A DNA stretch of 64,000 bases from Escherichia phage MiataMamis. Each line of letters begins with the position of its first letter. Position 1 is the stretch's first letter. This document shows positions 17,170 to 18,219 of this stretch, one piece after another. The DNA lies in sequence record PP925834.1. One strand, written 5' to 3'. Position numbers and translations under genes: made by a program. The notes under the pieces are model-generated. The model was not told where the DNA came from. It saw nothing but the letters and a program-made list of their open reading frames with translations, and searched no databases.

Positions 17170-18219
17170 ATGAATTTAACACCTCGCAGCACCATGGTAC
17201 ACGGCATGAAAGAAAAACAGAACGGTTTCGAACCTATGAGTAATAAAATGTTCGGTATGCCGGGTGGTATTATGGAAACATACAGCTACCCAACACCAGT
17301 TGTTGACCACGTTCTTTATATCGACGATTTGGAAGACTTACAAGATCATATGTCTCGTCTGCAGACGATCCGTATGGCTCAGCCGGAAGAAAGCATTCGG
17401 GTGATTATTAACAGTCCTGGTGGTTGCGTTCACATTGCTATGGCGTATTTGCAGGCATTCCGCGAGTCTCAGGCAAGCGTTGTTGTACACGCTGAAGGGA
17501 TGTGCTGCTCGGCAGGAACAATCTTATGGCTGGGCTGCAAAGAACGAACTGTGGCTCCGGACACAGAATTTATGTTCCACTACTATCAAGGTGGCACCTA
17601 TGGTAACGGTGTGAACATGAATACCCAGATCAACTACTGGAAGAAACGTTTTGAACGCCTGATCGAAAAATACTACGGTGGGGTGTTAACAGAAGATGAG
17701 ATCGCATCCATCACAGCTGGCGGTGAAGTGTGGTTAGATGGAGAAGAGCTGGCATCTAGAACTGGTGCTATCATTCTGGACGATGAAAACATTCAGCGCA
17801 TTCAGAATGGACAGAAACCGAAAAAGCTTTTGGCAAAAAGTGATGAAGAAGGTGTGCTAGGCGAAGCAGGCCTGCCAGAGATTCACCAATGCACATCTCT
17901 GGACGAGCTGGTTCATGCTGTTGAGTCTGCAAAAGCAAATGGTATGAAAGGCGATGTTCACACTGTATTCCTGAATCTGCAGATGGAAAGTGGCGAGACC
18001 GTCCGGATCGCCCTGGGGGAAATTACTTCAGAAGATCTGCAGCGATTCTCTGTCGTCGAACTTCAGGATATTCTGTCTCAATTGAAGACTACTCTGAACG
18101 GCGGGGAAGAGGTTAAGGTGAAAGATAAGACCCGCAAGCGTCTGATGGACAATATCATTAAAACAGCAAAAGAGCTCAATGAAAAAATCCTGGGTGCAGG
18201 AATTGTCGAAGAAGCTTAA
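17170..18219 (+). CDS. ClpP-family serine protease with C-terminal extension
   Basis: INSPGG, catalytic Ser context GMCCSAGT, His context FMFHYYQGG; about 170 aa extra C-terminal. Confidence 0.7.
   Translation: MNLTPRSTMVHGMKEKQNGFEPMSNKMFGMPGGIMETYSYPTPVVDHVLYIDDLEDLQDHMSRLQTIRMAQPEESIRVIINSPGGCVHIAMAYLQAFRESQASVVVHAEGMCCSAGTILWLGCKERTVAPDTEFMFHYYQGGTYGNGVNMNTQINYWKKRFERLIEKYYGGVLTEDEIASITAGGEVWLDGEELASRTGAIILDDENIQRIQNGQKPKKLLAKSDEEGVLGEAGLPEIHQCTSLDELVHAVESAKANGMKGDVHTVFLNLQMESGETVRIALGEITSEDLQRFSVVELQDILSQLKTTLNGGEEVKVKDKTRKRLMDNIIKTAKELNEKILGAGIVEEA

Follow-up and report, generated by a model that had tools for sequence, protein, structure and literature searches.

Phage-encoded ClpP proteins are patchily distributed and have been proposed to act against the host (Iyer et al. 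2021, PMC7824862); in the same work PhoH is treated separately, as an RNA-helicase-like ATPase related to superfamily 1 helicases, and further genome papers mention both clpP and phoH among auxiliary genes, with no link between them. In phage rV5, ORF 122 is given as a ClpP protease subunit both by GenBank record DQ832317 and by Kropinski et al. 2013 (PMC3606486, Table S3). Here we describe the corresponding gene in a stretch of 64,000 nucleotides from Escherichia phage MiataMamis (PP925834.1), referred to below as the window, which is a genome segment of a Vequintavirus, that is, of an rV5-like E. coli myovirus. The gene lies at 17170..18219 on the plus strand and encodes a ClpP-like serine peptidase. 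The explanation that we favour, and consider fairly probable with all of its parts taken jointly, is that its product is the orthologue of rV5 gp122, a phage-restricted ClpP-fold peptidase with a non-structural role, which is not the prohead protease and probably does not work through the ClpX/ClpA docking pocket.

The gene itself, preceded by an AAGGA ribosome-binding site 6 nt 5' of its ATG, is an ordinary and long-annotated feature of rV5-like phages. A 4-kb query around it matched 122 phage records at 90-99% identity, and the protein is 96-99% identical to proteins of rV5-like phages annotated as "ClpP ATP-dependent protease subunit" or "ClpP-like protease". The profile of PHROG 5410, to which rV5 gp122 and the Vequintavirinae 'ClpP-like protease' belong, covers the full length of the protein including its C-terminal module (E=1.6e-154, residues 24-345 against profile positions 4-322 of 323). 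Nothing substantive differs between the window's gene and rV5 gp122, as both encode 349 amino acids (aa) and both stand in the same synteny (PhoH, an open reading frame (ORF), the ClpP-like gene, a methyltransferase). With an orthologue long annotated in rV5, neither the gene nor its name is new, and since it is routine the finding as stated adds little. Earlier reports gave the name and a Pfam hit only, and in the literature examined we found no description of the variant catalytic triad, of the loss of the docking pocket, of the orphan C-terminal tail, or of the pairing in which PhoH is followed by the ClpP-like gene. What our analysis adds is a correction of both names in common use and, as a modest lead, the linkage to PhoH. 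The features of the gene are given below; the 13 lineages compared are the clusters obtained after clustering at 45% identity.

17170..18219, plus strand: ClpP-like serine peptidase ORF, 349 aa and stop, orthologue of rV5 gp122 (ORF 122), PHROG 5410 match, 96-99% identity
17170..17301, plus strand: N-terminal region, aa 1-44, predicted disordered, standing where canonical ClpP has its axial loop and helix A
17302..17805, plus strand: ClpP-fold core, aa 45-212, including the handle helix at aa 150-169, delimited from model confidence, Foldseek and PF00574
17509..17511, plus strand: codon of the predicted nucleophile Ser114, which in alignment matches E. coli ClpP Ser97, invariant in 40/40 family members and 9 lineages
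17578..17580, plus strand: codon of His137, aligned with E. coli ClpP His122 and invariant in 40/40 family members and 9 lineages
17725..17727, plus strand: codon of Glu186, which takes the place of ClpP Asp171
17806..17955, plus strand: linker, aa 213-262, variable in length and mostly modelled with low confidence
17956..18198, plus strand: C-terminal orphan module, aa 263-343, a beta-hairpin and three helices with invariant F293, E297 and R322

A first-pass annotation of this DNA had taken the motifs INSPGG, GMCCSAGT and FMFHYYQGG as signs of a peptidase of the ClpP/S14 fold whose Ser and His are in catalytic register. All three motifs are present, at aa 80-85, 110-117 and 134-142, and the proposal was borne out. 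The Pfam family CLP_protease (PF00574) matches residues 59-168 with 49.5 bits against a cutoff of 20.2 (E=6e-13), ClpPs of the PDB match the protein sequence at E ~5e-8, and an AlphaFold (AF2) model built from 40 homologues presents residues 45-212 as a confident ClpP core, with a predicted local distance difference test (pLDDT) score of ~85-94. This core superposes on solved ClpPs with a Foldseek E of ~4e-9 and a template modelling (TM) score of ~0.7 normalised to ClpP, over ~165 columns (160-173). The long C-terminal extension that had been pointed out is also there, and only its size had to be revised, from ~170 to ~140-150 residues, because the ClpP core ends near residue 200-212. An additional stretch of ~42 residues at the N-terminus, of low confidence and not ClpP-like, had been overlooked; residues 1-42 have a pLDDT <50 in this monomer model and no alignment to the ClpP N-terminus, although they might become ordered in an oligomer, and the N-terminal region contains a family-conserved motif, F28-G29-x-P31...Y40-P41.

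Together with Ser114 and His137, the oxyanion-hole Gly85 is invariant in the 40 close homologues and in the nine lineages that were aligned with E. coli ClpP. The third position differs, as the catalytic Asp of the ClpP fold is replaced by Glu186. Among the 40 Vequintavirinae-like homologues this position is occupied by Gln in 35 and by Glu in 5, and across lineages it is Asp, Glu or Gln, with Asp or Glu in seven of nine; the Asp is retained in the ICP1, T5-like and KVP40-like members. The first-pass annotation had considered that the residues might fall outside the ClpP triad, and this is not what we see for Ser and His, the third residue being Glu and not Asp. From these alignments the predicted catalytic residues are Ser114, His137 and Glu186, where Glu186 may be a functional substitute for Asp, and the conserved Asp190 could serve as an alternative acid.

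The C-terminal module (residues 263-343), modelled alone, gave a confident beta-hairpin followed by three helices (pLDDT 79-91), and is separated from the core by the linker, with pLDDT 35-62 over most of its length. Within the linker, the Vequintavirus subgroup alone has, judging by alignment gaps, an insertion at ~aa 236-253, of ~12-23 alignment columns depending on the homologue. When 1.84 billion representatives were searched exhaustively with a profile, the module was found in 7 proteins only, and the full-length proteins that carry it are all 300-375 aa long, with the module always C-terminal. In BFVD its sole significant match is an unnamed protein of 303 aa with 23% identity, which probably belongs to the same family. 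Homology of the rV5-type tail with the long tail of ICP1 gp211 was considered and rejected (hhalign E=0.19 over 23 columns). Because of the 7 proteins, the single BFVD match and the lack of a related tail in ICP1, the tail is a lineage-restricted orphan appendage.

When the protease domains of nine lineages were joined in one profile, clade members scored 153-238 bits and the next proteins, which are head-maturation and cellular ClpPs, scored at most 73 bits. By these scores we are dealing with a distinct, phage-restricted clade of ClpP-fold serine peptidases, set apart from both cellular ClpP and head proteases. The shorter non-structural ClpP-like proteins of PHROG 1827, from ICP1 (gp211), Otagovirus, Barbavirus, Pakpunavirus, T5-like and KVP40-like phages, belong to the same protease clade (phrog_1827 E=2e-39). 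They share the invariant Ser and His and a non-capsid context of replication and nucleotide-metabolism genes, often directly after PhoH, and have Asp, Glu or Gln as third catalytic residue. Their tails are different, since most are proteins of 180-245 aa with a short charged helix, and the long tail of ICP1 is not detectably related to that of the rV5 type. In all 13 lineages the ClpP-like gene is found amid replication or nucleotide-metabolism genes, and in none of the 13 is it found in the capsid module. A head-module location had been expected for the ICP1 and Pakpunavirus homologues; this expectation was contradicted by the annotated records.

The canonical place of a prohead protease is occupied by another gene. 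In the complete genome of the related BASEL phage EmilHeitz (Bas49) the head module consists, in this order, of terminase, portal, a 139-aa protease, scaffold, decoration protein and major capsid protein, and the ClpP-like gene is ~105 kb away from it. The protease of 139 aa matches Peptidase_S78_2 (XkdF-type, PF14550; 65 bits against a cutoff of 24). Across 117 records, rV5 among them, its identity is 99% or more, and it is present also in PVP-SE1, Hena1 and CR3. In the related phages CB7 (Certrevirus) and W70 (Septuagintavirus) the capsid protease encoded next to the portal was detected in the virion proteomes, that of W70 being phrog_1530, the same PHROG as the EmilHeitz protein, and "Clp" is not mentioned in the main text of the two proteome papers. 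Mass spectrometry (MS) of rV5 virions identified 19 proteins, and gp122 (38,541 Da) was not one of them. Separate capsid proteases are found also in ICP1 (gp125) and Barbavirus (gp097), and in the ICP1 transcriptome the genes gp208 (PhoH) through gp211 are "Middle-late" and the capsid cluster gp122-126 is late.

The position of the ClpP-like gene among ribonucleotide reductase (RNR), PhoH and methyltransferase genes, which had been read from the window initially, was verified. The neighbouring features are the following.

7071-8054: ThyX-like gene
8852-11167: NrdA
11207-12295: NrdB
12574-14697: NrdD
14874-15347: NrdG
15911..16699, plus strand: PhoH-like P-loop ATPase (Pfam PhoH, E=1.2e-46)
16744..16772, plus strand: sigma-70-type promoter-like site, TTGACA-17-TATTAT, 11/12, a consensus match only, 5' of orf103 and the ClpP-like gene
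16798..17109, plus strand: orf103, a small ORF between PhoH and the ClpP-like gene
18271..18804, plus strand: NPPY-motif methyltransferase-like ORF, 177 aa, directly 3' of the ClpP-like gene, with Pfam and NCBIfam matches below cutoff

The promoter-like site is equivalent to P121 annotated in rV5. The small orf103, which gave no Pfam or NCBIfam match and is conserved only in close relatives, is probably co-transcribed with the ClpP-like gene. Homologues of the methyltransferase-like ORF are annotated as N6-adenine methyltransferase in relatives and follow the ClpP-like gene directly in loci L008-L023 and in phiTE, being syntenic throughout the Vequintavirinae-like loci. In Barbavirus, a Dam-type methylase is encoded after the ClpP-like gene. 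PhoH, the ClpP-like protein and the methyltransferase may form a conserved trio.

PhoH is encoded upstream on the same strand in 8 of the 13 lineages, and the order is always PhoH and then ClpP-like. In four of these the two genes are directly adjacent, with an overlap of 8 nt in Otagovirus and of 4 nt in P0079 and a spacing of 1 nt in P0081 and of 53 nt in Barbavirus; in the other four they are separated by one gene (Vequintavirus and L024), two genes (ICP1) or four genes (phiTE). ICP1 has NrdA and NrdB, then further on PhoH, two small genes, the ClpP-like gp211 (326 aa) and, further on, a ligase; phiTE has RNR, PhoH, NrdD, NrdG, two small genes, the ClpP-like gene and a methyltransferase; Barbavirus has PhoH, ClpP-like and Dam; and in P0081, which like P0079 and L024 is metagenomic, PhoH abuts the ClpP-like gene and NrdB follows. 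No adjacent PhoH was found in the remaining five lineages, which are Pakpunavirus, a T5-like Klebsiella phage, in which the ClpP-like gene lies between a deoxynucleoside monophosphate kinase and a holin, a KVP40-like Vibrio phage, in which it comes after dihydrofolate reductase, and two further contigs, P0060 and P0085.

The recurrent co-oriented position just after phoH suggests that the two products work in one shared pathway. It is a much bolder proposal, and in our judgment a rather doubtful one, that PhoH is the nucleotide-dependent partner of the peptidase, acting as an unfoldase or remodeller or as a targeting factor directed to RNA or to ribonucleoproteins (RNPs), in an ATPase-peptidase system of phages that has not been described. 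The fixed order and the same-strand linkage, kept in clusters sharing <45% identity, would fit such a partnership, as would the "Middle-late" class of both ICP1 genes, and the lack of conservation in the canonical ClpX/ClpA pocket would allow for a different partner. The five lineages without an adjacent PhoH do not fit it, no PhoH-ClpP fusion of the Rosetta-stone type was present among 120 listed clade and neighbour proteins, and PhoH is known as an RNA helicase and not as a protein unfoldase (PMC7824862). Perhaps the adjacency reflects just a shared expression class or inheritance as a block. With the same reserve, one may imagine the two proteins as a functional pair, a phage-specific nucleotide-dependent system for proteolysis or RNP remodelling, in which the C-terminal tail and the polar surface that replaces the docking pocket would mediate the partnership.

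Could the protein instead be a canonical ClpP subunit, forming tetradecamers that use host ClpX/ClpA, or mixing into host ClpP rings to redirect proteolysis? We consider this unlikely. With bacterial ClpP (MEROPS S14, TIGR00493) the phage protein shares the alpha/beta fold with its handle helix, the INSPGG oxyanion loop and the Ser/His register, its Pfam CLP_protease score is above threshold, and true ClpP-ClpX pairs do exist in some large phages, for example phage G. The identity is only ~20%, however, and the score against the clpP equivalog TIGR00493 is 33.5 bits where the cutoff is 308.6. The pocket of E. coli ClpP that docks the IGF/LGF loops of ClpX and ClpA, which from ClpP and acyldepsipeptide (ADEP) structures we take to be Y60, Y62, F82, I90, M92, F112 and L114, aligns with R77, I79, E99, H107, E109, T127 and A129. 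Within the Vequintavirinae-like group there is no variation at R77, E99, H107, E109 and T127; from lineage to lineage, all seven positions differ. Arg170 of the Asp/Arg sensor is an invariant Gly in the ClpP-like proteins, Glu stands for Asp171, the axial N-terminal loop is not detectable in a region that is not alignable and is predicted disordered, and the phage protein carries the extra C-terminal module of ~140-150 aa. Neither clpX nor clpA nor clpC is annotated among the 233 features of the complete EmilHeitz genome, where the sole annotated AAA+ protein is a MoxR ATPase, although host ClpX and ClpA would in principle still be available. Because the pocket is mostly polar, the score far below the clpP cutoff, the N-terminus not alignable and no unfoldase annotated, the label "ATP-dependent Clp protease subunit" is unsupported, and given the mostly polar pocket residues, docking of ClpX or ClpA via the canonical IGF-loop pocket probably does not occur.

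The first-pass annotation had offered two possibilities, a prohead protease at an atypical location and a protease with a non-structural role, and it is the latter that the evidence favours. The former, in the form of a capsid-associated protease whose C-terminal module targets procapsids and which acts alongside or instead of the S78 protease, seems to us very unlikely. It would draw on the fact that the best matches outside the clade are head-maturation proteases (phrog_1684, 2e-23; NF045542, 63 bits), which often also have C-terminal extensions, and on the resemblance of a protease core with a C-terminal helical tail to protease-scaffold fusions. The comparison by profile and structure, which had been proposed as a check, gave a fold match with S14 ClpP and, for the head-maturation family, a profile score too low for membership, in that the 63 bits against NCBIfam NF045542 (ClpP-related head-maturation protease) fall short of the curated cutoff of 120. 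Unlike the proteins of this family and of PHROGs 1684, 94, 2976 and 133, the ClpP-like gene is not beside portal, scaffold or major capsid protein; the window contains no capsid genes, and a look at the capsid neighbourhood in EmilHeitz, which had also been called for, leads to a module far away from it. There the slot from portal to scaffold is filled by the S78/XkdF protease, which the whole subfamily has and which is found in the virions of CB7 and W70; published virion proteomics, the third check proposed, does not list gp122 in rV5. When the tail was compared by profile with the scaffold of Vequintavirus and with the S78 protease, following the lambda C/Nu3 model, it resembled neither of them. 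Neither the position of the gene in the 13 lineages nor the middle-late class of the ICP1 homologue agrees with a role in head maturation.

The capsid protease itself carries inconsistent names. PHROG 1530 and the RefSeq entry of rV5 call the S78/XkdF gene (EmilHeitz L002:3957-4376; NC_011041 55886-56302) a 'DNA methyltransferase', and one more record has it as a 'DNA-binding protein', which looks like a propagated misannotation.

A catalytically impaired, ClpR-like scaffold that binds instead of cleaving, as the replacement of the canonical Asp by Glu here and by Gln in most close relatives might suggest, is the least credible alternative, given that Asp or Glu is retained in seven of nine lineages and that Ser114, His137 and Gly85 are invariant across lineages only ~20-30% identical, which indicates selection for catalysis.

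Several points nevertheless count against the non-structural, phage-restricted peptidase that we favour. Full-text literature searches found no biochemical or genetic work on any member of the clade. Activity is not assured, because Glu, and in 35 of the 40 relatives Gln, takes the third catalytic position. The pocket comparison relies on an alignment at ~20% identity, even if no gap interrupts it from INSPGG to the catalytic Ser. The families closest to the protein, apart from its own clade, are head-maturation proteases of phages. As it is common for prohead proteases to leave the capsid, the absence of the protein from virions is weak evidence. Location is not decisive either, because a homologue of rV5 ORF 133 lies at 21230-21691 on the plus strand, in the same non-structural block ~3 kb downstream of the ClpP-like gene, and gp133 is among the predominant proteins in rV5 virion MS.

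If the protein is indeed a non-structural ClpP-fold peptidase, its gene would be expressed ahead of the late structural genes or separately from them, under the sigma-70-like promoter and together with orf103. The peptidase would then act in the infected cytoplasm, its targets being host proteins or non-structural proteins of the phage rather than the procapsid. The C-terminal module specific to the family would provide recognition of substrates or partners, or oligomerisation.

For this clade, both of the names common in databases probably mislead, the usual one being "ATP-dependent Clp protease proteolytic subunit" and an occasional one "head maturation protease". Many large virulent phages possess a second, non-capsid ClpP-fold peptidase, for which host takeover and anti-defence are plausible roles. 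Its repeated coupling to phoH opens an experimental way to study phage PhoH, a marker gene widely used in marine phage ecology and without known function, and the pair, if true, would give phage PhoH a concrete role.

Some other features of the window and of the matching records were observed. Upstream of PhoH, the window's NrdG is only 52% identical to that of rV5, where the adjacent PhoH is 99.6% identical, and NrdD is uninterrupted in the window and split by a homing endonuclease in EmilHeitz; the anaerobic RNR region is thus mosaic among otherwise near-identical Vequintaviruses.

Between 30550 and 33080 there are ~2.5 kb without long ORFs, where the gene blocks of the plus and minus strands converge and the GC skew changes sign. 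Most of the relatives listed, rV5 among them, have no annotation for this region, which is ~93% conserved. Short degenerate tandem repeats lie within it at 31973-32243, and it gave no tRNA or Rfam match; it may be a replication or regulatory region.

Finally, 19 records named 'Campylobacter phage' (e.g. MG065654, MG065658, MG065659, MG065662 and MG065666), 17 of them with C. jejuni given as host, are ~95-97% identical to this E. coli Vequintavirus, and their capsid protease sequences are identical to those of Vequintavirus. Host mis-assignment or contamination in these deposits seems likely.

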